From a virus: a stretch of DNA of 64,000 nt. The notes under the pieces are model-generated. The model was given only the letters and a program-made list of their open reading frames with translations. It ran no database searches and was not told where the DNA came from. This document shows, in pieces, positions 28,098 through 43,153 of this stretch (within the stretch, counting starts at the first letter, position 1; each line of letters begins with the position of its first letter). Both the position numbers and the translations under genes were made by a program. Where the stretch lies: the IMG/VR virus record IMGVR_UViG_3300047322_000556, positions 1-64,000 of that record. The stretch is one strand, 5' to 3'.

Positions 28098-28376
28098 ATG
28101 CGTAAGGACATGTTCGTGCAAGTGCTCGCCGATCGCGCGGGCGTGAAGCGTGCCGAAGCCGGTGCGGTGCTCGATGCGCTGACCGGGCTTATCTCGGCGG
28201 CAAGCGGCGGCGTCGGCCGCATCCGCGTGCCGGGGCTCGGCAGTTTCGAAGTGACGCAGCGCGCCGCGCGCCGTGGCGTCAATCCGCGCACGCTCACGCC
28301 GATCGATATTCCGGCCCGCCGCAAGGTGCTTTTCAAGCCCGCAATCGAGCTCGTGCGCGCCGCTGGAGCCGAGTAA
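28098..28376 (+). CDS. HU-family DNA-binding protein
   Basis: 'GLGSFEV..RAARRGVNPRT..IDIPA..KVLFKP'. Confidence 0.9.
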   Translation: MRKDMFVQVLADRAGVKRAEAGAVLDALTGLISAASGGVGRIRVPGLGSFEVTQRAARRGVNPRTLTPIDIPARRKVLFKPAIELVRAAGAE

Positions 28377-28984
28377 TGGCGAAGCTGACTGACGCCGAAT
28401 GGGCACAGGCCCGCGCGGTATGGGAAGCGGACCCGAAGGTCAACTTCGTGCATATCGCGGCCGAATTCAACGTCACGAAGCAGGCCGTCGCACTGCGCGC
28501 GAAAAAGGACGGCTGGCAAAAGCAAGCCGACATGCCGCATATCGTGCGCGAGGCGCATCGCGCGGCTGACGCGAAGAGCAAGCCGCCGACGCCGATCGGC
28601 AAGAAGGGCGCGGCGGCCGAGCCCGCCGAGAAGCCGAAGATCGAGCGCACGGCGCCCGCTATGCTGCCGACGCCGCAGGACCGCGCCGAAGCCGTCAATC
28701 GCGCTGTCGATCATCGCGCCGAGCTGCTGAGCCGTCATCGCGCCGAGTGGGAGGACGTTCGGCGGATTGTGCAGGCCGCCGTCGATCTGGAGGATTTCGA
28801 CAAGGCCAAGCTCGGCAAGATCACGAGCGAGGCGACGAAGATCATTCAGGAAGGCGAGCGCAAGGCGTGGGGTATCGATCAGGACCAAGGCGACGATAAG
28901 AGCAAGACGACTATCGTCATCGAGCGCCGCGACGAGAGTACTTCACGGCACGCGCCGCGCGCTGATCCACAAGCGCCGTCGTGA
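28376..28984 (+). CDS. Putative terminase small subunit
   Basis: N-terminal HTH 'W..ARAVWE..IAAEFNVTKQAV..RAKKDGW' and C-terminal 'GERKAWGI'. Confidence 0.6.
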   Translation: MAKLTDAEWAQARAVWEADPKVNFVHIAAEFNVTKQAVALRAKKDGWQKQADMPHIVREAHRAADAKSKPPTPIGKKGAAAEPAEKPKIERTAPAMLPTPQDRAEAVNRAVDHRAELLSRHRAEWEDVRRIVQAAVDLEDFDKAKLGKITSEATKIIQEGERKAWGIDQDQGDDKSKTTIVIERRDESTSRHAPRADPQAPS

Positions 28985-29022
28985 CGCGACGATGCCCCTC
29001 AGACCGTTACTGAGGGGCGTCT

Positions 29023-32000
29023 GTGACTGCTCGCATCATTTTCTTCGTCAATCCCGAGATTGACTTGCTCAAGGCCACTTTCAAGAAAGAAATGTGGATT
29101 CCGGGCTATACGAAACACGACGGCACTTCCGTCGAAGGCCATTACAAGCACGTCAACGTCGCCGACGATCACGACGATGCGAAGGTGCTGAGCGGCAACG
29201 GTTCCGCGACGCAGAAGGACGCGCACAAGCTGCTCACGAAGCACGGCTTTTACGGGCTGCCGCAAGAGCATCATCTGCCGGTGCTGCTCGCGCACGCGAC
29301 CGATATGCAGGACGCCGCCGGTATCCGCGCGCGCGCCGCGAAGTTCCGCGTCGCCATTCTCGGCGGCGCAATGCCGATTCCCTCTCAGACGAAAGCGTAT
29401 CTGCTGCTCGACGCGGACAAGCAGGCGAAGTACAAAGCCGAGTTCGAAAAGGCGGGCAAGCTCGATCTGTTCGAACAGGCGATCGCCGAAGGCAAGGCCG
29501 CGCCGGACGAACCGGGCGAAGCGCCGCAGAAGCCCGCAGAAGCCGCCGCCGCGCCCGCGCCCGAAGCGGTGCAGCCGGAAGCGCCAGCGAGCGCGCCCGA
29601 GGCCGCGCAGGAGCCCGCATTCAAGCCGCTCGATCACGGCGAGCTGAACATTCCCGGCAAGACGAAGAACATCGACGCCGAGCTCGACAAGTACAAAAAG
29701 CAGCAGGCCGCCGACGCGAAGGCGAAGGCAAAAACCGCCAGCGCCGAGAAGAAGGAAAACAAGGCGAAGGCGAAGGCGCTTTTTGACGAGTACATCGACG
29801 CGATCAAGGCCAAGCATGGCGCGAAGTACGGCGCGAAGGAAGTCGAGAACATGCTCGACGGTTGGGTGAAGTGGGAGCCGAAGAAGGCGATCCAGTTCAT
29901 CGAGCAATTCGTGAAAGAACAGGGTGCCACCTATGAGGCTGCGGCGCCTGAAGTTGCGCCCGAGCCGACGCCAGTGCAGCAGGCCGCGCCGAAGAGCGAC
30001 GAGGCGAAGGAAAAAGCCGAGAAGCTCACGTCGATGGTGGCCGATCTCAAGGGCATGGAGTTCCCTGCAATGGACGAGCTCGCGGACTCGCTGCCGGGCA
30101 AGGCGTCGTGGTTCATGTCGGGCATCGCGCAGGCGAATGACGACTGGATCAAGGAAGGTCAGGCCGCGTGGGACGCGCTCGCGCCCGAGCAAAAAGCCGC
30201 GTCGCTGTCGCTGCTCGAAGCGTCGATCAAGCACGATGCGGAATACGACGCCAAGCACGCCGAGAAGCTGACCGATGACAAGCTCACGGCAGTCGCGCAC
30301 AAACTCTCGATTCTCAACGGGCTCAAGAAGCAGTGGCTTGTCCCTGCAATCACGAAAGAGACGATTGACGATGCGGCCGCCAATGGCGACGTTCAAACGC
30401 TTCAGCAGCTCGCGAGCATCTTCGAAGGCAAGGAACAGCTCGGCTCATTGAGCTACGTCAAGCAGGCGCTCGCGCAAGCGCAGGCCGGGAAGGAAGAGCC
30501 GAAAGCCGAAGTGCCCGCTGCCGCATCGAGCGAGCCGGTCAAGCCCGTTCTGCCGGGCAACGCGCACCATCTCTGGTTCGATGAGGTTGAGGAAGCATAC
30601 AAGGCCGGTGACGCCGAGAGTCTGGAGAATCTGGCGCATGCCTTCGGTGTCGATGACGAGGCGGCGGCTAAAGCGATCACAGGCTACGCGAAGGCGTGCA
30701 TCGCTGCGCTCGAAGCGAAGAGTGCGCCCACTGCGGCGTCGAGCGCGTCGGTCAAGCCGACTATGCCCGACTTCGGCGGCTCGCTCGTCTCTGGTGGCAT
30801 CGCGAAGAAGATTGCGGCCGAGATGGAGGCTGGCAACGTCCAAGGGCTTCAGGATCAGCTCTACATGATCGGCAATCCCAATCCGGGGTCGCAGTTTGCC
30901 ACGCTGAAGAAGTATGCCGAGGATGCGCTCGCCTATGTGAATGGCGGTGGCGCTGCTGCCGATGACGGCCCGAAAGAAGGCGACACGAAGGTTATCGACG
31001 GCGTCACCTATGAGCTCAAGGGCGGCCGCTGGCACAAGGTCGGCGGCGCTGAAACGGCGTCCGATACGGTCGGCATGCCGGTGTTTGCTGGCAAGACGAT
31101 CGAGTATTACAGCAAGGTCGCGGCGAAGCTCAAGGCGCTCTTCGACAAGGGCGATTGGGACGGCATTCAGAAGATGATGGACGGCGACGGCAAGACGTGG
31201 GCGGGCACGTCGCCGAATAGCAAGCTGCTGATCCAGTACGGCAAGGAATTGCTCGGCGCGCACGCCGCGCATGGTGACGCCGCGCCGGTCGAGCAAGCGG
31301 CGCCCGAGCCCGCGCTGCAAGCCGCGCCGGAACCGGACGCCGACGAGCCTGAAGCTGATCCGAGCAAGCCTGAGTCGATCGACGGCTGGCATCAAACCGG
31401 CGGCCAGAAGGGTTCGAACGCGGGCGGCGAATTCACGGACGAGCACGGCCAGAAGTGGTACTGCAAATTCCCGGCATCCGAGTCGCACACGAAAAACGAG
31501 ATGCTCGCGGCGAAGCTCTATGAGGCCGCAGGCATCGAAGTGCCGCATCTGAAGCTCGTCACGCAAGGCGGAAAGGTCGGCATCGCCTCGAAGATCATCG
31601 ACGGCGTCAAGAAGGATTCGTCGGCGCTCGCGGCCGGTGTGCCGGGCGTGGCCGATGGCTTCGCGGTCGATGCGTGGCTCGCGAATTGGGACGTCGTCGG
31701 CACTGGCTACGACAACATGCAGATCAAGCCGAACGGGCATGCTGTACGCCTCGACGTCGGCGGCTCGCTGCTGTATCGCGCGCAAGGCACGCCGAAGGGC
31801 GACGAGTTCGGCAACACGGTCGGCGAGCTCCAGACGCTCAAGAACGGCAAGAACGGCTATGCCGCGCACGCCTTCGGCAAGCTGACCGACGCGCAGATCG
31901 CGGAGTCGGCGAAAAAGGTGTCGGCGGTGTCGCCCGAGACGATCCAAAAGCTCGTCATGGAGTACGGGCCGGGCAGCCATGACGCGAAGCTGACGTTGGC

Positions 32001-33549
32001 GGCGAAGCTCATCGCGCGGCGCGAGGACGTGCTCAAGCAAACCGGCGCAAGCGCGCCGAAGCCGGGCATCGCGTCGGCTGTCGAAAAGCCCGCCGAGTCC
32101 GCTCCGCAACCGGCGGCGGCCGCGCCCGCACCGAGCGGCGAGCTGGCGATTCCGGAATTCGACGGGCCGAAGGCGGCCGGTTACGCGTCGGCCGCGAAAA
32201 AGCTCATGGAGACGGCGGCCGCGCAAGGCAACACGAAGCATCTGCACAAGCTCATGGGCGGCAAAAAGCATCTGCTCTACGGCCCGAGTCTGTACTCGCC
32301 GGGCAAGTACGTGAAGATCGCTACGATCATGGAGCCCGCCAAGACGCCGAACGGCGCGAAGCTGCTCGAATTCTGGCAGCAGCTCGAAGCGAAGTACGCA
32401 GGCCCGAACAAGAAGAAGTCGCCGCCGAAGGTCGTCGCCGCGAAGGAAACGAGCGCCGCGCCCGCTCCAGCGCAGGCTGCGCCCGCCGAGCCCGCGAAAC
32501 CCGATCTGCGCAATCTCGCGATCGACACGAACAAGTTGCCGAAGCTGACCGACTTCCACGGCGGCAACGGTGGCAGTGGCATTTCGAGCAAGGCGCACGT
32601 CAACGACGCGAACGCGAAGGATCAGAAGGACGTGCTCAACTTCGCGCTCAAGGGCGACTTGATCGCGCTGCGCAAGTACGAATACGAGGCGTTCGACAAG
32701 CAAACCGGCGCGTCGCTCGGCATGAAGCCGATCACGGATCACCCTTCGAAGCACGTCAAGGAATTTTGGGAGGCATGCTGCTCGACGCTGGAGTTGGTCG
32801 CATTCCCGCCCGCGCCGCTCAAGGCGTTCGATGAGCATGTATCCGATGACGTCAAGGCGCTCTCGGACTCGTTCAAGCCGCATCTGTACGGCAAGTCAGT
32901 CCACAATGTCGCGGCGAATGAGAAGCTCGGATTCTGGATCGCGCTCGGCGTCGAATCGGGCTGGAAGAAGTTCAAACCGCAGCAGATGCAAAACGCCGTC
33001 GATGTGCCGGGCATCAAAGAGAAGGGGCATGCTCTTTTCGCGAAGTACACTGCGAACGTGAAGCACTTCATCAAGAGCGTTCAGGCAACCGGGTCGTACA
33101 ATAATGCTTACCGTGAAGGTAAGGACGTCGATTCATACGGCAAGGCGACGCGCCCGATTCTTTATGATCTGTACGGTGCCGCTCAGACAAAGCCCGCCGG
33201 GACGACGATTACGAAGTGGATGTCAATGCCGGATGAGATGATCGATCAGTTCATGAGCGCGCCGGACGGGCTCGTGTTCCAGAATCCGGGCTCGATGTGC
33301 TGCTCGATGCACCCGACCGGCACGAAGGGCTTCGGCAGTAACAAGATGACGATCCACTACGCGCCGGGCGCGAAGGCGATCGATACCTTCGGCTCTGGCG
33401 GTTTCGCGGGCGAGATGGAAATTACGACGTTGCCGGGCACGCGGTTCATGGTGCTGAGCAAGAAGAAAACTTCGGACGGCAATCTGCATCTCGAAGTGCT
33501 TATGCTCCCGCCGGACCAGACGTATATCGACAACATTCTGACTAAGTGA
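29023..33549 (+). CDS. Large polyvalent protein: HipA/PI3K-like kinase domain + C-terminal ADP-ribosyltransferase-like domain
   Basis: Kinase region ~31380-32040: 'GSNAGG..WYCK..NE.LA..LY..AG..VP..FAVDAWLANWDVVG..DN..RLDVGGSL'. C-terminal 'GEMEITTLPGTRFMV' ExE motif. Confidence 0.7.
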   Translation: MTARIIFFVNPEIDLLKATFKKEMWIPGYTKHDGTSVEGHYKHVNVADDHDDAKVLSGNGSATQKDAHKLLTKHGFYGLPQEHHLPVLLAHATDMQDAAGIRARAAKFRVAILGGAMPIPSQTKAYLLLDADKQAKYKAEFEKAGKLDLFEQAIAEGKAAPDEPGEAPQKPAEAAAAPAPEAVQPEAPASAPEAAQEPAFKPLDHGELNIPGKTKNIDAELDKYKKQQAADAKAKAKTASAEKKENKAKAKALFDEYIDAIKAKHGAKYGAKEVENMLDGWVKWEPKKAIQFIEQFVKEQGATYEAAAPEVAPEPTPVQQAAPKSDEAKEKAEKLTSMVADLKGMEFPAMDELADSLPGKASWFMSGIAQANDDWIKEGQAAWDALAPEQKAASLSLLEASIKHDAEYDAKHAEKLTDDKLTAVAHKLSILNGLKKQWLVPAITKETIDDAAANGDVQTLQQLASIFEGKEQLGSLSYVKQALAQAQAGKEEPKAEVPAAASSEPVKPVLPGNAHHLWFDEVEEAYKAGDAESLENLAHAFGVDDEAAAKAITGYAKACIAALEAKSAPTAASSASVKPTMPDFGGSLVSGGIAKKIAAEMEAGNVQGLQDQLYMIGNPNPGSQFATLKKYAEDALAYVNGGGAAADDGPKEGDTKVIDGVTYELKGGRWHKVGGAETASDTVGMPVFAGKTIEYYSKVAAKLKALFDKGDWDGIQKMMDGDGKTWAGTSPNSKLLIQYGKELLGAHAAHGDAAPVEQAAPEPALQAAPEPDADEPEADPSKPESIDGWHQTGGQKGSNAGGEFTDEHGQKWYCKFPASESHTKNEMLAAKLYEAAGIEVPHLKLVTQGGKVGIASKIIDGVKKDSSALAAGVPGVADGFAVDAWLANWDVVGTGYDNMQIKPNGHAVRLDVGGSLLYRAQGTPKGDEFGNTVGELQTLKNGKNGYAAHAFGKLTDAQIAESAKKVSAVSPETIQKLVMEYGPGSHDAKLTLAAKLIARREDVLKQTGASAPKPGIASAVEKPAESAPQPAAAAPAPSGELAIPEFDGPKAAGYASAAKKLMETAAAQGNTKHLHKLMGGKKHLLYGPSLYSPGKYVKIATIMEPAKTPNGAKLLEFWQQLEAKYAGPNKKKSPPKVVAAKETSAAPAPAQAAPAEPAKPDLRNLAIDTNKLPKLTDFHGGNGGSGISSKAHVNDANAKDQKDVLNFALKGDLIALRKYEYEAFDKQTGASLGMKPITDHPSKHVKEFWEACCSTLELVAFPPAPLKAFDEHVSDDVKALSDSFKPHLYGKSVHNVAANEKLGFWIALGVESGWKKFKPQQMQNAVDVPGIKEKGHALFAKYTANVKHFIKSVQATGSYNNAYREGKDVDSYGKATRPILYDLYGAAQTKPAGTTITKWMSMPDEMIDQFMSAPDGLVFQNPGSMCCSMHPTGTKGFGSNKMTIHYAPGAKAIDTFGSGGFAGEMEITTLPGTRFMVLSKKKTSDGNLHLEVLMLPPDQTYIDNILTK

Positions 33550-33557
33550 GGCAGCGA

Positions 33558-34010
33558 ATGAATCCGCTGGCAGGACTCAAATTCGACGGGGCGCCCGATG
33601 GGCGTCCGTCGCTTGGCGACTATGAGGTCGTCGATCGGCTCGTGACGGGTTTCGCGCAGGACGTGCTCAACGTGCGAAAGGACTTCCACGCGGGCAAGCC
33701 CGGCGGCGATAAGCCGGTCGAGCGCATCGAAGCGCTCGCGCAGCACTTCGGCGACATTTTCATGGGCCGCAACGACGCCTATCAGGCGCAGCCGTGGAAT
33801 AACCCGATTCGGCTCGGCTCGAAAATCCGCGTGCTGCTCAACGGCACGAGCGATCCGGACGAAGGCAAGTCGCTGTTCGTGTGGGTCGCGAGCAACGTCG
33901 TGCGATCGTCCGAGGCGGTCGAAAGCGGCAGCATGACGGACGAGGCAGCGGGCAAGAAGCTGCGCGAGGTTCTAGACAGCGTCGTCGCGATGCTGCTCGG
34001 TATTCGCTAA
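33558..34010 (+). CDS. Hypothetical protein directly downstream of the kinase/ART gene
   Basis: 150 aa. Alternative GTG start at 33546 overlaps the upstream stop. Confidence 0.6.
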   Translation: MNPLAGLKFDGAPDGRPSLGDYEVVDRLVTGFAQDVLNVRKDFHAGKPGGDKPVERIEALAQHFGDIFMGRNDAYQAQPWNNPIRLGSKIRVLLNGTSDPDEGKSLFVWVASNVVRSSEAVESGSMTDEAAGKKLREVLDSVVAMLLGIR

Positions 34011-34077
34011 AGAAATTTACCCAAAAGGTAAAACATGGGGTAAAGTGTAGCCACTAACACGAACAAAGGAAAAAACC

Positions 34078-34527
34078 ATGTGGCTCACCTTCTCTGACGC
34101 ATTCCTCTCCATCGTTTCGATTCCGGGCGACGCCGCGAACCTGAAGGTGCGCGCGCGCCGCAAGGGCGATATCGAGCGCATCTTCAAGCACTGCGGCGCG
34201 GCCGTGAAGGTCGAACGCACGCCGGGCCGTGACTATCTGTATCGCGCGGTGATTCCGCGTGACGTCGTCGGCGCGGTCGTGGCCGAGCACGTCGCGGGCA
34301 TCAGCTATCCGAATTTCAAGAACTCGGTGCGCGACGATCGTCTGCACACGGCATGCAATCGCGTGTGGCACGTCATGGCCGATCTGCAGGAGATTCCGCC
34401 GTATGCGCGCGATCGCCGCCGTGGTCTGTCGCTGTTCGATGAGGCGGATGAATCGACGGGCTTCGACCCGGTGCCGGTGGTGACGAAGCCGCCGGTCAAG
34501 CGCCGCGCGCCCGCACGCAAGTCGTGA
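34078..34527 (+). CDS. Conserved hypothetical phage protein
   Basis: 'MW..FLSIV..VRARR.GDI..F..DY.YRA..I.Y.NFK.SV'. AAGGA RBS and upstream operator. Confidence 0.65.
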   Translation: MWLTFSDAFLSIVSIPGDAANLKVRARRKGDIERIFKHCGAAVKVERTPGRDYLYRAVIPRDVVGAVVAEHVAGISYPNFKNSVRDDRLHTACNRVWHVMADLQEIPPYARDRRRGLSLFDEADESTGFDPVPVVTKPPVKRRAPARKS

Positions 34528-34561
34528 ATCGATACTGATCCCGCATAACTACAAGGCAATC

Positions 34562-35458
34562 ATGGGACTCATTCTCTTCCTCAAGTCGCACATTCCGGGC
34601 TACACCAAGAAGGACGGCACTTTCGTCAAGCCGCACGACGACAAGCGCCAGAAGGCCGCGCAGCCCGCGAAGTGGTCCGGCGCGAAGGCCGCCGAGCACG
34701 CGTATTTCGCCGGGGAAGAGAAGGGGCCGAAGGGCTGGCCGTATGCGTCGCAAAAGCCGATCGCCTCGAAGCCGAGCGAAGGCGCGAACGCGCATTGGCA
34801 TCCGAAGCTCGATGACAAGGGCAAACAGGTGCGCGTGCGCTATCCGCATAAGGCGACGGACACGGCGAGCATGCGTCATCCGGACGCGATCGCGACGTTC
34901 ACGCCGGGCATGGAAAGCATGCCGCACTCGCTCAACGGCGTGCCGTTCAAGGCGTGGATGAACGCGCCGACGACGACGGAAGAGTGGGCGAACGTCGCGG
35001 GTCAGGTCGATATCGAAGAGCCGCAAATGCAACTGCCCGCGAAAAAGACGGCGGCGTCAGGCGTGGTCATTGTCGAGCCGGACGGCCGTTACTGGCTCAT
35101 GGCGCCGACGAATCGCTTCGGTGGGTACCATCAAACCTTTCCGAAGGGCCAAGCCGAGCCCGAGCTCTCATTGCAGGCGAATGCCATCAAGGAAGCCTAC
35201 GAAGAGACGGGGCTCAAGGTCGAGATCCTCGGCTTTCTCGGCGACTTCGAAAAGACGACCAGCGTCGCGCGCTACTACATGGCGAAGCGCGTCGGCGGCA
35301 CGCCTGCTGATATGGGATGGGAAGCGCAGGCACTTTGCCTCGCGCCGACTGACAAGCTCTATTCGCTGCTCAACATGAGCGGCGATCACGCCGTCGCTGA
35401 GGCGCTCGGTGCGGGTCCGGCTCCAAAGCCCAAGGCCGCGCCCGGCAAGCTCTTCTGA
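34562..35458 (+). CDS. Nudix hydrolase with N-terminal leader
   Basis: Nudix box variant 'FPKGQAEPELSLQANAIKEAYEETGL'. Confidence 0.88.
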   Translation: MGLILFLKSHIPGYTKKDGTFVKPHDDKRQKAAQPAKWSGAKAAEHAYFAGEEKGPKGWPYASQKPIASKPSEGANAHWHPKLDDKGKQVRVRYPHKATDTASMRHPDAIATFTPGMESMPHSLNGVPFKAWMNAPTTTEEWANVAGQVDIEEPQMQLPAKKTAASGVVIVEPDGRYWLMAPTNRFGGYHQTFPKGQAEPELSLQANAIKEAYEETGLKVEILGFLGDFEKTTSVARYYMAKRVGGTPADMGWEAQALCLAPTDKLYSLLNMSGDHAVAEALGAGPAPKPKAAPGKLF

Positions 35459-35465
35459 TACACCG

Positions 35466-35489
35466 CGCCGCTCACTGAGCGGCGTTTTT
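35466..35489 (+). terminator. Rho-independent terminator
   Basis: CGCCGCTC-act-GAGCGGCG-TTTTT. Confidence 0.8.
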
Positions 35490-35517: not shown

Positions 35518-36936
35518 ATGGCCTATACCGTAACACTCCCGATCCTCCACGCCGGGCAGCAGCAGCTCATGCACGAGTCGCGCCGCTATAACACGGCGTC
35601 GTGCGGCCGCCGCTTCGGCAAGACGTTTCTCGCGCAAGAAGTGCTGCTCGATGGGCCGCGCCAGAAAGGCGCGCTCAACGGCTATCCCGTCGCGCTCTAC
35701 GCGCCGACGTATCAGACGATGCTCGAAAGCTGGCGCACGCTCTGTCGCACGCTCAAGGACGTCACTGACACGAAGAGCGAACAGAACAAGCGCATCGACT
35801 TGATAACCGGCGGCTCGGTCGAGTGCTACTCGCTCGATGATCCAGACGCCTCGCGGGGCCGCAAATTTGCCGTCGCCGTCATCGATGAGGCCGCGATGAT
35901 TAAGCGGCTCGAAGAGGCGTGGGAACAGACGATCCAGCCGCTTCTGCTCGACTTTCAGGGTGAGGCGTGGTTTTTCTCGACGCCCAAGGGCGACAACTAC
36001 TTCAAGAAGCTCTTCGACAAGGGCAACCCCGCCAATCCGAACCGCGATGACGAGTGGCAGAGCTGGCAGCTCCCGACGATCACGAACCCGCATATCAGCA
36101 AGCGCGACGTCGAGAAGATGAAAGAGGGGCTGCCGCGCCTCGTCGCACTTCAAGAATTCGACGCCCAATTTGTCAGTTTTGCCGGTACCTTCGTCAAGGC
36201 CGAGCATATCCGCGTCGGTCAGGCGCCGCGCGGCATGCGCCTGTATCAAGGCGTCGATCTGGCAATCTCGATGAAGCAAAACGCCGACTACACGGCGATT
36301 GTGACGGTCGGGGTGGACGATCAGGGGCGCGTGTGGATCGTGGACGCCGAGCGCCGCCGGGTGGGTTTCCGCGACGCGCTCTCGTTCATCAAAGAGAAGG
36401 CCGCCAGATACAAGCCGCAGGAAATCGCGATCGAAGCGGTCCAGTATCAGGCGGCCGTGGTCGAAGAGCTGCTGCGCTCGACGGATCTGCCAGTTCGGCA
36501 AGTCAAGCCGGATAAGGATAAATTCACGCGTGCGCAGGGGCTCATCACGCGCTACGAAAACGGGCTCGTGTGGCACAACGAGACGCTGCCGTCGTACTTT
36601 GTCGAGGAAATGCTCGCGTTCGGCCCGGACTGCGAACACGACGACTTGCTCGACGCGGCGGTCTACGCTTACGCGCTATGCGGCGACTTCGGGCGCACGC
36701 AGTTCATCCTGCCCGAGCATCAGGTGTATGAGTCGAAGATCGAGATCGTTCGCTCGATGCACGGTCTGCCGTCGCAGGTCGCGCAGATGGTCGATACGGG
36801 CATGGAGCAGCTCGCCGCAAAGCTCAACGGCGATGCCGGGACGTGCGGCGCGTGCTCGGCGTTCGATGGGCGAGGGTGTACGTTGCGCGGATTTTCGGTC
36901 AACCGTACTGATCCGGGGTGCGAGTTCTACGCGTGA
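35518..36936 (+). CDS. terL: Terminase large subunit
   Basis: 'GRRFGKT', 'VIDEAA', 'STPKG', RNase H-like 'GVDLA..ADYTA' and 'HDDLLDA'. Confidence 0.93.
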   Translation: MAYTVTLPILHAGQQQLMHESRRYNTASCGRRFGKTFLAQEVLLDGPRQKGALNGYPVALYAPTYQTMLESWRTLCRTLKDVTDTKSEQNKRIDLITGGSVECYSLDDPDASRGRKFAVAVIDEAAMIKRLEEAWEQTIQPLLLDFQGEAWFFSTPKGDNYFKKLFDKGNPANPNRDDEWQSWQLPTITNPHISKRDVEKMKEGLPRLVALQEFDAQFVSFAGTFVKAEHIRVGQAPRGMRLYQGVDLAISMKQNADYTAIVTVGVDDQGRVWIVDAERRRVGFRDALSFIKEKAARYKPQEIAIEAVQYQAAVVEELLRSTDLPVRQVKPDKDKFTRAQGLITRYENGLVWHNETLPSYFVEEMLAFGPDCEHDDLLDAAVYAYALCGDFGRTQFILPEHQVYESKIEIVRSMHGLPSQVAQMVDTGMEQLAAKLNGDAGTCGACSAFDGRGCTLRGFSVNRTDPGCEFYA

Positions 36937-39117: not shown

Positions 39118-39141
39118 AAGCCCGCCGCGTGCGGGCTTTTT
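39118..39141 (+). terminator. Rho-independent terminator
   Basis: AAGCCCGC-cgcgt-GCGGGCTTTTT. Confidence 0.8.
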
Positions 39142-39187
39142 GCTATCCGGTCGTGACGCAAGGATTCCTCTATCAAGGAGGAATTCG

Positions 39188-41062
39188 ATGAGCAAAGCCG
39201 AAAATGTGGCGTTCGACGCCAGCGCGCCCGCCGACGAGCGCGGGGATGCGCTCGGGCAGCTACAGAAGGCTCATGCGCCGACTGCACTCTCTAGCCTGCT
39301 GCCGAACGACGCCGTGCGCGACGTCATCTCGTTCATTCAGGACGGCTTCGAAGAGGCCGCCATGAACAAGGCGATCAACCCGAACATCGTGCCTTTCCCG
39401 TCCAAGCGCTCGCGCGACGGCGAGCCGGGCGTGCAGTCGGTCACGCTCGATGAATGGCAAGTGCAGGTTCAAGGCCAGTATTGGGACCGGCCCGGCGCGC
39501 TCTCGTTCGATTCGCTGCGCGCGATGGTCGATCAGACGCCGATTCTGAACGCTGTCATCCTCACGCGCATTCGCCAAGTGCAGCGCTTTTGCCGCGTGGC
39601 CGAGTCGGGCGACGACAAGCCCGGTTTCGAGATCCGCCACGTCGATAAACACCACAAGCTGACGGAAAGCGAGCGCGAGTCGATCCAGTTGCTCAACCGT
39701 TTCATCGGCAACTGTGGGTGGGAGTTCAAGCCGCGCCGACGCAAGGCGCTGCGCCGCGACGCCTTCAGTCAGTTCATGGCGAAGTGGGTGCGCGATACGC
39801 TCTCGATGGACTCCGCGCCGATCGAGCTCGAATGGAAGCGCGACAAGGCGCTCGGCATCGACGGCTTCTACAGCGTGGACGGTGCGACCATTCGCCTCTG
39901 TACAGAGGACGGATACGAAGGCGACGACGAGGTTTTCGCGCTTCAGGTCGTGCAGGGCCGCATCTCGACGGCATATACCTTCGATGACTTGATCTACGAG
40001 CCGCGCAACCCGCGCACGGACGTGAGCGCTTCGGGCTACGGCATCTCCGAGACGGAGCTGCTCATTCGCATCGTGACGGGCTTCCTGAATGCGCTGACCT
40101 ACAACATCAAGGGCTTCGATTCGAACGCGATTCCGAAGGGCATGCTGCATCTGAGCGGCAACTACACGCAAGACGATATCGCCAGCTTCAAGCGATATTG
40201 GAATTCGATGGTGAAGGGCATCAACAATGCATGGGCGCTGCCCGTCATGGTGTCCAAGGATCAGGAGTCGCGCGCGGGCTTCGAGAAGTTCGGCGTTGAA
40301 TACAACGAAATGTACTTCGCCAAGTGGATGACCTTCTTGACCAGCATCATTTGCGCGGTCTACGGCATGAGCCCGGCGGAAATCAACTTCGACGCCTTCA
40401 GTGGCGGCGCTACGTCGGCGCTCTCGGGCTCGGATACGGGTGAGAAGCTCGCCGCGTCGAGGGACTCGGGGCTCATGCCGCTGCTTTCGCATGCCGAAGG
40501 CATCATCACTGACTACATCATCGGCGACTTTTCCGACAAGTTCGCGTTCCGCTGGACGGGCCGCGATCCGGAGGACGCCGACCGCAAGCAGAAGAAAAAG
40601 GAGCTCATTCTCACGGTCGATGAGATGCGCTCGGAAGAGAGTTACGACCCGCATCCGGACCCGCTTATCGGTGGTGCGCCGCTCAACGGCCAGCTCGTCG
40701 CGCTCTACACGCAATCGAAGCAGCCGCAGCAGCAGGAGGACTTCGGTGCGCCGGGCGGCGGTGCGCCGGGTGAAGGCGGTGAGGCGCCGGGCGACGGCGA
40801 CTTCGGCGGGCAAGGCCCGAATGGCGACTTCGGCAAGGGCGATGATCCACAGCCGGACTTTGGCAAGCCTGACGCCGTGGGCGACGCGGGCAAGCCGGGC
40901 GACGTCGCGAACGCGCCCGCTGATCCAGCGCTCGGCGACGACGCGACGGGCGACGAAATTCCTGGAGACGGCACGCCCGACGAGCCCGCCGACTTCGGCA
41001 AGCAGGCCGGTGAAGAGGACTTCGGCAAGGCGCTGCCGACCATCTACTCGCTGGAGGACTGA
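39188..41062 (+). CDS. Portal protein
   Basis: 'YEPRNPRTD..GYGISETE', 'F..NAIPKG.L', 'ICAVYGMSPAEINF'. Acidic DFG-repeat tail. Confidence 0.85.
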   Translation: MSKAENVAFDASAPADERGDALGQLQKAHAPTALSSLLPNDAVRDVISFIQDGFEEAAMNKAINPNIVPFPSKRSRDGEPGVQSVTLDEWQVQVQGQYWDRPGALSFDSLRAMVDQTPILNAVILTRIRQVQRFCRVAESGDDKPGFEIRHVDKHHKLTESERESIQLLNRFIGNCGWEFKPRRRKALRRDAFSQFMAKWVRDTLSMDSAPIELEWKRDKALGIDGFYSVDGATIRLCTEDGYEGDDEVFALQVVQGRISTAYTFDDLIYEPRNPRTDVSASGYGISETELLIRIVTGFLNALTYNIKGFDSNAIPKGMLHLSGNYTQDDIASFKRYWNSMVKGINNAWALPVMVSKDQESRAGFEKFGVEYNEMYFAKWMTFLTSIICAVYGMSPAEINFDAFSGGATSALSGSDTGEKLAASRDSGLMPLLSHAEGIITDYIIGDFSDKFAFRWTGRDPEDADRKQKKKELILTVDEMRSEESYDPHPDPLIGGAPLNGQLVALYTQSKQPQQQEDFGAPGGGAPGEGGEAPGDGDFGGQGPNGDFGKGDDPQPDFGKPDAVGDAGKPGDVANAPADPALGDDATGDEIPGDGTPDEPADFGKQAGEEDFGKALPTIYSLED

Positions 41063-41580
41063 TGACGCGCGAATTCAACGTGAAGCAGCCGCATAGCGTC
41101 ATCGAAGGCGACGAGCTCTACTTCCAGCATCCGACGCGCGGCGTGAGCTGCGCGGCCGTGCGCTCGGTGGGCAAGCACGGCGTGCGCGTGAGCGATGACG
41201 AGGCGCCTGACGGTCTGCCGGTGCGGTGGGAGCATGTACTTGGGCACAAGGCGCGCGCGCAGCGCAAGCTCGTTGTCGTGGACAAGGGCGAGGACGGCTC
41301 GATCGCCGAGGACGAAAGCGGCAAGCGCGTCTATATCAACGGGCGCATTCCGGGCGAGGCGCCGAGCGCGCCGCTCGCGAAGTCATTCGAGCTCGGTGCG
41401 GTCGCGACGCCGGACGATATCGAGCCGGTTCTGCTCGCCGCGCTTGAGGCCGGGCGCGGTTCCGCCGAGCTCGCCGCACTGATCCATCAACTCATCGAAC
41501 GCACCGCGCGCACTGAGGCGCTGCTGCTGGCGCTCGTCGCGAAGTTCGGCATTCAAACTGACACTGGAGTATCCGCATGA
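41062..41580 (+). CDS. Head-module hypothetical protein
   Basis: Coupled to portal. Confidence 0.55.
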   Translation: MTREFNVKQPHSVIEGDELYFQHPTRGVSCAAVRSVGKHGVRVSDDEAPDGLPVRWEHVLGHKARAQRKLVVVDKGEDGSIAEDESGKRVYINGRIPGEAPSAPLAKSFELGAVATPDDIEPVLLAALEAGRGSAELAALIHQLIERTARTEALLLALVAKFGIQTDTGVSA

Positions 41581-41990
41581 CCACGATCGTGTTTTTCAAG
41601 TCGATTCGTCCGGCTGACGACAAAGAGCAGCTCGGCGCGAAGCCGGGCGAAAAGCCGCAGGAGCCCGCAGGCGACGCCGCTGCTGCCGCACAGAAGCCCG
41701 CGCCCAAGGAAGCGCCGCAAGCCGCGCAGAAGCCGCAGGGTGAGCCGCGCGAAGGTGGTGAAGGTGAGGAAGGCGGCGAAGGCTTCGGCCCGCACAACGT
41801 CGAAGCCGGGCATCACGTCGCGTTTCACGCGGGCGAGTTCAAGGGCGCGGGCAAGGTGACGGCTTCGGGTGAGGACGGCTGCACGGTCGCGGATAAGAGC
41901 GGGCGCGAGCATCGCGTGCATTGGCACGAGGTCAAGGGTCATCACGACGGCGCGGCTGAAGGTGCGGCCGAGAAGGGTTCGGCCGAGTAA
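41577..41990 (+). CDS. Head-module hypothetical protein with 'IVFFKS' leader
   Basis: Low-complexity linker plus small C-terminal domain. Confidence 0.55.
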   Translation: MTTIVFFKSIRPADDKEQLGAKPGEKPQEPAGDAAAAAQKPAPKEAPQAAQKPQGEPREGGEGEEGGEGFGPHNVEAGHHVAFHAGEFKGAGKVTASGEDGCTVADKSGREHRVHWHEVKGHHDGAAEGAAEKGSAE

Positions 41991-43153
41991 TGGCGCTCCT
42001 GCTCGACATTGGTCCGATCTCGTGTGGCTGCACGAATCACGCGCTGGAGCTCTTTTCGAAGGCAATGAGCGGTGAGGACGGCTCGGACGAAGGCATCTGG
42101 AAGCCGCACGATTCGCCGTTCGTGCGGTATCTGATCGAGCTCTTCACGTCGAAGGGCTTGACGATGCTGTCCGACGTGCAGGCCGAGCTCAATGCGTGGA
42201 TCGAAGGGCAGCGCTATCAGCCGAGCCCGCAGCCGGTCGAGAAGCCGCAGCCGCAGCTCTATGCGCAGTGGACGCCCGCCGAAATGGATCTTGTCGAGCT
42301 CTACCTATCGAGCCTCTCGCGCATGCAGTTCACGCTCGAAGATTGGGGCTTGCTGATCGACTTCCTGATTCAGCGCTATATGCCGCTGTCCGATCTTCAG
42401 AAGCAGGCGACGGCGCTCGCCGTGCGCGCCGCGCTCATGGGCAAGGCGCAAAAGATCATCGAGACGATTCCGGATGATGCGGCCGCGAAGGTGGTCGAGT
42501 CCATGCCGCAGAGCTACGCGGAAGCGCGCGAGCTCTTCGGCGGCCAGAAGCTCTTCGACTCGGTCATGGAATACGGCACGCTGCGCGCGTGCGAGAACGT
42601 GCAGCAGTTGAGCGACGAAGTACGCCATCGTATGAAAAGCACGGTGCTCGCGTCGGTGTCGCAAGCGCAGCAGGGCGACGTGTGGGCGGTCAGTGCGCTC
42701 CAGCAAAAGCTGCTCGATGACTTCGCGACGATGAACAGGGATTGGCGTCGCATCGCCGTGACCGAAGCCGGTGAGTGCGCGAATCAGGGCTTCATCGCGT
42801 CGCTGCCGCTCGGCACGAAGGTCAAGCGCATGGAGATTTATCACGGCGCGTGCTCCTACTGCCGAAAGATCAACGGTCGTGTGATGACGGTCGTCGCGGC
42901 GAACGACCCGAACAAGGACGGCGACACGGACGTGTGGCCGGGCAAGACGAACGTCGGGCGATCCAGCGCGCGGCGCAAGCGCGTCGGCGACGAGCTCATC
43001 GAGCGCACGCCTGAAGAAATGTGGTGGGTACCGGCGGGCACGGTGCATCCGCATTGCCGGGGCATCTGGCATGTGCTGCGCAAGATTCAGACGGCGGGCG
43101 ACGAGAAGTTTACGGCGTGGCTCGCGCAGCATTTGGCGGGTCCGGATAAATAA
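41990..43153 (+). CDS. Head morphogenesis protein (MuF/SPP1 gp7-like)
   Basis: 'RDWRRIAVTE', 'ACSYC...NG', 'HPHCRG'. Confidence 0.8.
   Translation: MALLLDIGPISCGCTNHALELFSKAMSGEDGSDEGIWKPHDSPFVRYLIELFTSKGLTMLSDVQAELNAWIEGQRYQPSPQPVEKPQPQLYAQWTPAEMDLVELYLSSLSRMQFTLEDWGLLIDFLIQRYMPLSDLQKQATALAVRAALMGKAQKIIETIPDDAAAKVVESMPQSYAEARELFGGQKLFDSVMEYGTLRACENVQQLSDEVRHRMKSTVLASVSQAQQGDVWAVSALQQKLLDDFATMNRDWRRIAVTEAGECANQGFIASLPLGTKVKRMEIYHGACSYCRKINGRVMTVVAANDPNKDGDTDVWPGKTNVGRSSARRKRVGDELIERTPEEMWWVPAGTVHPHCRGIWHVLRKIQTAGDEKFTAWLAQHLAGPDK

Follow-up and report, generated by a model that had tools for sequence, protein, structure and literature searches.

A four-gene block between the terminase genes of an uncultured contractile-tailed phage, encoding a predicted kinase-ADP-ribosyltransferase giant protein and a Nudix hydrolase with a shared leader, as candidate virion cargo

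Between the genes for the small and large terminase subunits (terS and terL), the uncultured virus record IMGVR_UViG_3300047322_000556 of IMG/VR carries four co-directional genes that encode, in this order, a giant protein of 1508 amino acids (aa), a small partner, a 149-aa protein, and a Nudix hydrolase. The sequence analyzed here, “the window,” comprises positions 1 to 64,000 of the record, that is, the first 64 kb of a single contig of 89,361 bp. The giant protein is predicted to combine a CtkA/HipA-like kinase with a C3/VIP2-type ADP-ribosyltransferase (ART), it shares a short N-terminal leader with the Nudix protein, and by sequence comparison the four-gene block is conserved in myophages of about 90 kb. 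The cassette is probably a widespread host-takeover kit that is carried in the virion. As to how it would work, we lean narrowly toward a late-region cargo cassette, the giant and Nudix proteins of which are loaded via the leader, injected, and act on the next host.

The features under discussion are the following.

28376..28984, + strand: terminase small subunit gene terS, left border (phrog_1206, E 5e-6)
29023..33549, + strand: gene of the 1508-aa polyvalent protein (leader, helical/low-complexity N-terminal half, predicted kinase, linker, pre-ART domain, predicted ART)
29023..29157, + strand: leader of the giant protein, residues 1-45
30964..31047, + strand: internal hairpin motif of the giant protein, residues 648-675
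31366..32052, + strand: predicted CtkA/HipA-like kinase domain, residues 782-1010
32497..32958, + strand: pre-ART domain, residues about 1159-1312 (predicted local distance difference test, pLDDT, about 85-95)
32959..33534, + strand: predicted C3/VIP2-like ART domain, residues 1313-1504
33558..34010, + strand: gene of the 150-aa acidic partner
34078..34527, + strand: 149-aa basic open reading frame (ORF) from a family of hypothetical viral proteins; fourth gene conserved in the block
34562..35458, + strand: gene of the 298-aa Nudix protein (PF00293)
34562..34660, + strand: leader of the Nudix protein, residues 1-33
35518..36936, + strand: terminase large subunit gene terL, right border (PF17289, 1.2e-15; phrog_2, 4.4e-33)

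The upstream part of the window contains lambda-like replication and recombination genes, followed by an HU/IHF-like gene and then terS; after the cassette come terL, a dUTPase gene, and the portal gene (39140-41062). The source is an uncultured contractile-tailed phage of about 90 kb, because a head maturation protease, a major head protein, and a tail sheath are encoded further along the same contig. An initial annotation of this DNA, made from its letters alone, had placed two ORFs on the + strand at 29023-33549 (1508 aa) and 34562-35458 (298 aa). Both are present and both carry a high third-position GC content (GC3). Its gene list stands for the ORFs that it named and left out the fourth gene (34078-34527, 149 aa) within the same coordinates. 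Its description of the region as a multi-enzyme effector cassette among packaging genes finds support in the “particle associated” labels of the homologues in Yersinia phage fHe-Yen8-01, the closest cultured relative to have such labels, and a published prediction agrees with it; both are taken up later.

Relatives show how the block is built. A megablast search of the phage collection with the cassette gave no match. By tblastn, the giant and Nudix proteins occur together in Aeromonas phage ST4, in Pseudomonas phages Jeremy, Dolphis, and Touem01, in Yersinia phage fHe-Yen8-01, in Morganella phage Mecenats66, and in two enterobacterial phages, all of 86-96 kb; Mecenats66 is a myovirus according to the accessible text of its paper (PMC9503643). 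Cultured members of the giant-protein family are known from Pseudomonas, Aeromonas, Yersinia, Escherichia, and Morganella. The order in ST4 and fHe-Yen8-01 is giant protein, a protein of 159-165 aa, and Nudix protein.

Wider neighborhoods were drawn from 80 IMG/VR Nudix loci, in which kinase, ART, and partner were sought by iterative profile search. Where at least 4.8 kb of upstream sequence was available (62 loci), kinase, ART, and partner lie directly upstream of the Nudix gene in 43, only the kinase does so in 1, and none of them in 18; in those 18 loci all three lie downstream of the Nudix domain. In addition, 22 stop-to-stop frames join the Nudix domain to the kinase, and in many cases to the ART too (L046, L050, L052, L054, L055, L059, L060, L062, L066-L071, L076-L082, and L084). 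These fusions are strong evidence that the kinase, ART, and Nudix activities work together, and the occurrence of all three in one frame argues for action on one pathway. Across relatives the block adjoins terminase and portal genes. Among the fused giants, many have a third kind of motif at the N-terminus, R-W-P-x-G...G-G-Q-F-x-P.

The shared leader is the least explored part of the cassette. Within their first 100 residues, the giant and Nudix proteins have 11 identities over 15 residues (BLASTP, E 2e-5), and the DNA under the motif is identical at 25 of 30 positions by manual count (29098-29127 against about 34592-34621), which agrees with an earlier statement that both begin with the same peptide. 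When a profile of the leader is searched against the whole 89,361-bp genome, only these two ORFs match strongly (4.6e-22 and 1.3e-14; the next match is at 0.003). The leader is bipartite: a short hydrophobic run with K-A or K-S at its end comes first, and after it a hairpin motif in which a His follows a D-G-T turn. In the giant protein, the hydrophobic run leads into L-L-K-A, then I-P-G-Y-T-K-x-D-G-T-x-V-x-x-H, and then an acidic D-D-H-D-D stretch. In the Nudix protein, it is predicted as a small hairpin ahead of a disordered linker (33-70), and in both proteins the leader appears to be set off from the folded enzyme by a linker of this kind. The leader is conserved at the N-terminus in a 30-row Nudix alignment and in many of 150 giant-protein homologues. 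By these comparisons, it is both real and modular.

A profile built from 12 leaders and searched against longer proteins matches 165 proteins at E<=0.01. Positions were read for 96 proteins from the best 120 of these 165 matches: the leader starts within residue 30 in 80, between residues 31 and 60 in 8, and later in 8. Leader-bearing cargo among the matches listed includes WGR giants, ARTs of PF03496 and PF01129, and proteins with PF18823, PF18796, PF18798, PF18812, or PF18760, together with Nudix proteins, PF00565, PF01471, PF00684, PF21841, and many small proteins without a Pfam family. We take PF18823, PF18796, PF18812, and PF18760 in these relatives to be polyvalent-protein domains. Counted by locus (80 loci plus the window), there are 37 cases with no leader-positive ORF, 25 with one, 14 with two, 3 with three, and 2 with four, the extra ones being ORFs of 140-550 aa in the same cassette. 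A kinase gene lies upstream of every Nudix gene that has the leader (35/35) and of 9/27 that do not; this co-occurrence (35/0/9/18, Fisher p 2.5e-9) is descriptive, as the loci share ancestry.

Several N-terminal types exist. Regular expressions assign 46 of the 150 giant-protein homologues to the type of the window and a close variant, 41 to G-Y-x-L-x-N-G-R-W-H-K, and 10 to R-W-P-x-G...G-G-Q-F, with 53 unassigned, many of them fragments. The giant protein of fHe-Yen8-01 uses the G-Y-x-L-x-N-G-R-W-H-K type. Within the giant protein of the window, the internal hairpin at residues 648-675 reads D-G-x-x-Y-x-L-x-G-G-R-W-H-K-V and is like the “type B” leader of relatives.

By analogy with known packaged proteins, the leader is a candidate capsid-targeting tag. 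A more far-reaching version, which we hold only tentatively and would sooner doubt than accept as a whole, is that this leader of about 35 residues is a portable consensus capsid-loading tag across the lineage of approximately 90-kb myophages, used with interchangeable enzymes and with no MuF or portal fusion. That joint claim would cover a hairpin consensus, G-Y-T-[KR]-x-D-G-T-x-V-x-x-H after the K-A/K-S run; a cargo of kinase-ART giants, Nudix, InPase-type and nuclease-type enzymes, and many small proteins; and alternative docking types that could be exchanged for it (G-Y-x-L-x-N-G-R-W-H-K and R-W-P-x-G...G-G-Q-F). If the conserved leader shared by the cargo is indeed a loading tag, then capsid loading becomes directly testable and injected proteins become predictable from sequence.

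The giant protein belongs to a very large family: residues 760-1508 match 4523 representative proteins at E<=1e-3, mostly of 1000-2000 residues (exhaustive HMMER search). The protein has no PHROG match, no NCBIfam match, and no solved-structure relative by sequence or profile search. Its sole Pfam match is to HipA_C, below threshold (16.1 vs 30.5 bits, E 0.009, residues 806-850), and the N-terminal 759 residues match no Pfam family. A WGR domain is present in 11 of 36 relatives of the protein, and one relative (P0226) carries the Pfam “Large polyvalent protein-associated domain 3” (LPD3, PF18798), which ties the family to the published polyvalent-protein class.

An AlphaFold2 model of the giant protein was built on an alignment with 36 of the 4523 homologues and has a mean pLDDT of 81.3 over the kinase/ART part. 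The best fold match of residues 782-1010 is Helicobacter pylori CtkA (3akk_A; Z 16.2, root-mean-square deviation [rmsd] 3.2, 212 aligned, 16% identity), followed more weakly by PI4KII-alpha (4hnd_A, Z 12.4). This region is thus modeled as a CtkA/HipA-like kinase fold, in line with the HipA/PI3K-like kinase first proposed from the letters. In the family alignment, conservation is 80-99% over the kinase columns W-Y-C-K-F-P, D-A-W-L-A-N-W-D-V-V-G, D-N, and D-x-G-G-S. Ahead of the ART, the domain spanning residues about 1159-1312 is well predicted and conserved in the family; it had no fold match among the matches listed, which should not be read as a sign of a new fold.

For the ART domain (residues about 1313-1504), the model aligns with C3 exoenzyme 3bw8_A (Z 14.6, rmsd 3.0, 177 aligned) and, by Foldseek, with 2c89_D (E 2e-7). 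Its matches include C3 exoenzymes, VIP2, and iota/CDTa along with related toxins, at Z 12-14.6 and a Foldseek E of about 1e-7, which points to a fold of the C3/VIP2 type (R-S-E clade). Separate fold checks of the two domains, as the initial annotation had suggested, therefore returned both a kinase and an ART (the latter by Foldseek), and the E-x-E that it had seen in the C-terminal domain is E1464-x-E1466. The fold and the E-x-E of the R-S-E clade are present in the window, and its Arg on strand 1 and its S-T-S motif are both missing. To place these residues, motifs were counted over 145 aligned rows of the C-terminal domain, one of them the window sequence; the column of the expected Arg was placed from the pattern of the sequences and the secondary structure of the model rather than from a structural alignment. 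At that column the window has K1398, and the family has R in 98/145 rows and K in 45/145. S-T-S is replaced by C1426-C1427-S1428: the first Ser column holds C in 141/145 rows and S in 2/145, and the third position holds S in 141/145. Each Glu of the E-x-E is kept in 143/145. The Yersinia fHe-Yen8-01 homologue, the ART of which is only about 25% identical, has the canonical R, S-T-S, and E-D-E. The atypical upstream residues reported earlier (K-W and C-C-S) are therefore there, but they are common family variants and not a private oddity, with the K/C-C-S combination of the window common to 35 of the 145 rows. Because the E-x-E is kept in 143/145 and the neighboring columns are highly conserved, the ART site looks like a working one under purifying selection, and the K and C variants presumably form part of it. 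A C-x-S ART in which Lys often stands for Arg is a defined biochemical question.

The Nudix domain passes its Pfam threshold (PF00293, 41.6 bits vs a cut-off of 21.1), and a word-indexed search at E<=1e-3 finds 265 homologues, many of which come from contigs of 85-97 kb. The Nudix box K-E-x-x-E-E (K210, E211, E214, and E215) is invariant in 30 rows, with K where R is usual, and the hydrolase is probably active. In the model of the protein (pLDDT 82.4), residues 1-11 have a confidence below 50, a small hairpin at approximately residues 12-32 has a confidence of 60-65, and disorder extends to residue 70; residues 76-298 are well folded and comprise a conserved N-terminal extension (76-160) and the Nudix fold (162-286). 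The structures nearest to that fold are diadenosine-polyphosphate (ApnA) hydrolases (9cxx_B, Z 14.4; 1vc8_A, Z 14.1), and a sequence profile search matches the diadenosine tetraphosphate (Ap4A) hydrolase 3i7u (E 1.6e-8). ADP-ribose enzymes rank below these as structural relatives, and it is important to remember that fold rank does not fix the substrate. The earlier idea of a write/erase toolkit against NAD signaling is weakened: with ApnA hydrolases as the nearest relatives, ADP-ribose is not singled out and the eraser role stays a guess.

Some smaller observations concern the ends of these proteins. Among 120 Nudix homologues, 59 have [LIM][FW] in the last five residues and 24 have a Q three residues before it; the C-terminal end of the window protein (35400-35458) is counted among the sequences to which the question of a [LIM][FW]-type ending applies. 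We take this ending with its upstream Q to resemble a sliding-clamp-binding pentapeptide. Beside these endings, we note the R-G-L-S-L-F-D-E of the 149-aa ORF.

The partner gene appears to be translationally coupled to the giant gene. Its most likely start is ATG 33558, which lies 9 nt past the giant-gene stop with a GAGG 7 nt upstream. The protein is acidic (isoelectric point, pI, 5.4) and its neighbor, the ART domain, is basic (pI 9.1). It is present in 43 of the 44 loci that have a kinase upstream of Nudix, and the sole locus without an ART is a contig-edge case. An Atlas search with the partner gave no match. The Yersinia homologue is 22% identical over the whole length (E 2e-11), and homology of the partner is kept whether the ART is canonical or of the C-x-S kind. 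From sequence, these features fit either an immunity protein or a chaperone. The suggestion that an immunity protein is left out of the virion does not sit well with the Yersinia record, where the partner homologue is itself labeled particle associated.

The 149-aa ORF is basic (pI 9.9) and is preceded by an AT-rich spacer of 67 nt. It lies 3' of the Nudix gene in 40 of the 70 loci with 2 kb of downstream sequence, and 5' of it only in the clade of the window. In an Atlas structure search its residues 1-111 align to the N-terminal part of a 279-aa bacterial Nudix cluster with a template modeling (TM) score of 0.66 by query, which should be taken as a lead only.

As for expression, each of the two leader-bearing genes had been credited with its own late-promoter motif. 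No sigma-70-like site was found before either gene in a consensus scan, and the DNA that they share upstream of the leader motif is only the ...TCGTGA end, stop codon included, of the preceding genes terS and orf149. The shared upstream heptamer was therefore rejected as a late promoter. A terminator-like hairpin at 35465..35485 (+ strand; 9 pairs, 7 of them G-C, then TTTTT) follows the Nudix stop and precedes terL. Given this hairpin and the lack of a promoter, the four genes look like the tail of a transcription unit that begins at or before terS. A perfect hairpin with an 8-bp stem lies at 28995..29017 (+ strand), after the terS stop and ahead of the GTG with which the giant gene begins. 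No T run follows it, and the scan does not class it as a terminator. The giant gene probably uses the 3' arm of this hairpin, GAGGGG, as its ribosome-binding site, and the hairpin might serve to couple or restrain translation of that gene.

Phage effectors that combine several enzymes, among them an ART with an associated Nudix enzyme, and that are delivered by the virion are already known as a predicted kind. In the available text of Iyer 2017 (PMC5512222), polyvalent proteins of phages and conjugative elements are predicted to be packaged and injected, and ART and kinase are among their domain classes. The giant protein resembles them, as there described, in being large and multidomain, with two effector domains, kinase and ART, in one ORF of a phage that has portal and terminase genes. 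It differs in its kinase, which in that text is a truncated Ser/Thr/Tyr type of Verrucomicrobia/Bacteroidetes phages and here has a predicted CtkA/HipA-like fold. The words “leader” and “WGR” are absent from the main text of that paper, which does not describe a shared tag. To CtkA/HipA-type kinases themselves, the link is the best fold match of residues 782-1010 and the weak Pfam HipA_C match; unlike them, the window kinase falls below the Pfam cut-off, has no sequence-level structure match, and is embedded in a 1508-aa phage protein.

ARTs and Nudix enzymes near terminase and portal genes of myoviruses are predicted as head cargo in the accessible portion of Iyer 2022 (PMC9503650). As with the head-packaged Alt/VIP2-family ARTs of that account, an R-S-E-clade, C3/VIP2-like ART lies beside terminase and portal genes here, with a Nudix enzyme in the same late context. 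Packaging is argued there from MuF, portal, or protease fusion or from a T4-like context, whereas the window has a short shared leader instead, and, unlike the ARTs covered there, the window family reads C-x-S for S-T-S in 141/145 sequences. The N-terminal 30 residues of P1 DarB are sufficient for capsid loading of a reporter, and according to the authors there is no consensus among P1 Dar N-termini (Gonzales 2022, PMC9024508, text available in part). The window proteins are like T4 internal proteins, Alt, and P1 DarB in that a short N-terminal peptide precedes a large enzyme in a myophage with a head maturation protease; compared with P1 Dar as reported in that text, they differ in having one leader consensus across different cargo and many phages, the core of which also occurs outside phages. 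Finally, HopAG1, a type III effector of Pseudomonas syringae, has ART and Nudix domains in one protein (Hulin 2023, PMC9963460, in the part accessible). It parallels the Nudix-kinase-ART fusions of the 22 phage frames by domain description only, and unlike the window proteins it is delivered by type III secretion into plant cells. Within the available texts of these papers, we found no description of a CtkA-like kinase joined to a C-x-S ART, of the four-gene block and its fused forms, or of a consensus leader shared among cargo.

Phage-injected proteins decide the first minutes of infection. To our knowledge, work on them has gone little further than T4 Alt, P1 Dar, and the N4 virion RNA polymerase (vRNAP). 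In the mechanism that we propose, the giant and Nudix proteins would be made late and loaded into the procapsid, with the leader as the loading tag, in the way that capsid-targeting sequences serve T4 internal proteins and P1 DarB. (The T4 capsid-targeting sequence is removed by the head protease.) Both proteins would leave the virion together with the DNA; in the next host, the giant protein would phosphorylate and ADP-ribosylate host targets and the Nudix enzyme would hydrolyze a nucleotide-type substrate. The partner would bind the giant protein at its ART end and act as a traveling chaperone or adaptor, or else as an inhibitor in the producing cell.

A number of points weigh against this proposal. 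Virion carriage in this phage is read from gene context and from the annotation of one relative. In the fHe-Yen8-01 record, each of the three homologues (giant protein, partner, Nudix protein) bears the label “particle associated,” but 52 of the 136 genes of that record bear it by manual count, including primase, methyltransferases, and terminase, and the label is thus unspecific; we found no publication behind it. A literature search on fHe-Yen8-01, Dolphis, and other cultured relatives found only the Mecenats66 paper, the accessible text of which contains no proteomics and does not mention these genes. The scan for promoters came up empty, and the leader-kinase co-occurrence figures are uncorrected for shared ancestry. 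A related hairpin is internal in the giant protein and occurs three times inside the Yersinia protein. The core of the leader hairpin lies beyond residue 60 in 8/96 proteins, and small bacterial proteins with signal-peptide-like N-termini also have it immediately after these, some of them twice in a row (P0353, P0367, P0297, P0327, P0308, P0359, P0336, P0341, P0343, P0363, and P0365). The leader hairpin may therefore be a general binding module that phages have recruited. Lastly, a nucleotide-type substrate for the Nudix enzyme is a proposal, and so is activity of an ART that has K for the NAD-binding Arg and Cys for the first Ser. In the secreted bacterial proteins, the core reads V-x-V-x-G-Y-x-[RK]-K-D-G-T-Y-V-x-P-H-x-R and looks like a widespread short module without an assignable name.

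Several of these points would suit a different account, in which the proteins are not cargo at all but late intracellular enzymes of the producing cell, concerned with host shutdown or abortive-infection signaling, and the leader is a protein- or nucleic-acid-binding hairpin with another job. Such a hairpin could well turn up inside proteins and in secreted bacterial proteins of unrelated kinds, as the core does, the Yersinia label (52/136 genes) is too unspecific to oppose it, and Pfam finds no MuF or portal packaging domain fused here. We nevertheless consider it unlikely: the block adjoins terminase and portal genes across relatives, the leader sits mostly at the extreme N-terminus and is common to several cargo genes of one cassette, and relatives carry polyvalent-protein domains, for which the published reading, in the available text, is delivery with the DNA (PMC5512222). 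An ART, with or without the kinase, and its acidic partner could also form a toxin-immunity or addiction pair, serving a phage-plasmid lifestyle or phage exclusion, with the Nudix enzyme as detoxifier. The tight coupling of the partner (a 9-nt gap, and 43/44 loci with the kinase-ART), its acidity (pI 5.4) beside a basic ART (pI 9.1), and the presence of ART toxin-immunity pairs among the fold matches (6drh_B and 8za7_B) speak for this. That reading seems quite improbable to us, since the Yersinia partner homologue is labeled particle associated, the partner stays homologous although the Yersinia ART has the canonical R/S-T-S and only about 25% identity, and the position of the genes, after terS, is in the late packaging region and not in a lysogeny region. 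It is conceivable, too, that the ART of this phage is catalytically dead, or merely binds or cleaves NAD, and that the kinase and Nudix enzyme do the work. K1398 and C1426 at the positions of the expected R and S invite this thought, which is very improbable in view of K in 45/145 rows, Cys in 141/145, the E-x-E in 143/145, and the high conservation of the neighboring columns. The cargo cassette is accordingly the account that we prefer.

Beyond the cassette, the two small ORFs 3' of the portal gene (41062-41990) have SH3-like G-x-V...W-x-x-V patterns. The second, of 137 aa (41577-41990), starts with a hydrophobic F-F-K-S run similar to the first half of the leader; this start was considered as a general head-protein tag and rejected, since no loci other than the three closest (L007-L009) keep it. 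The next ORF (41990-43153, 387 aa) was considered as a MuF-like head protein, owing to its Cys/His motifs (C-S-Y-C ... H-P-H-C-R-G) near the end, and the guess was dropped when Pfam and PHROGs gave no support. Further downstream, the 1685-aa ORF at 54584-59641 matches phrog_62, “DNA helicase,” nearly end to end (E 5.7e-128), and could be a second large multidomain protein, polyvalent or DarB-like.

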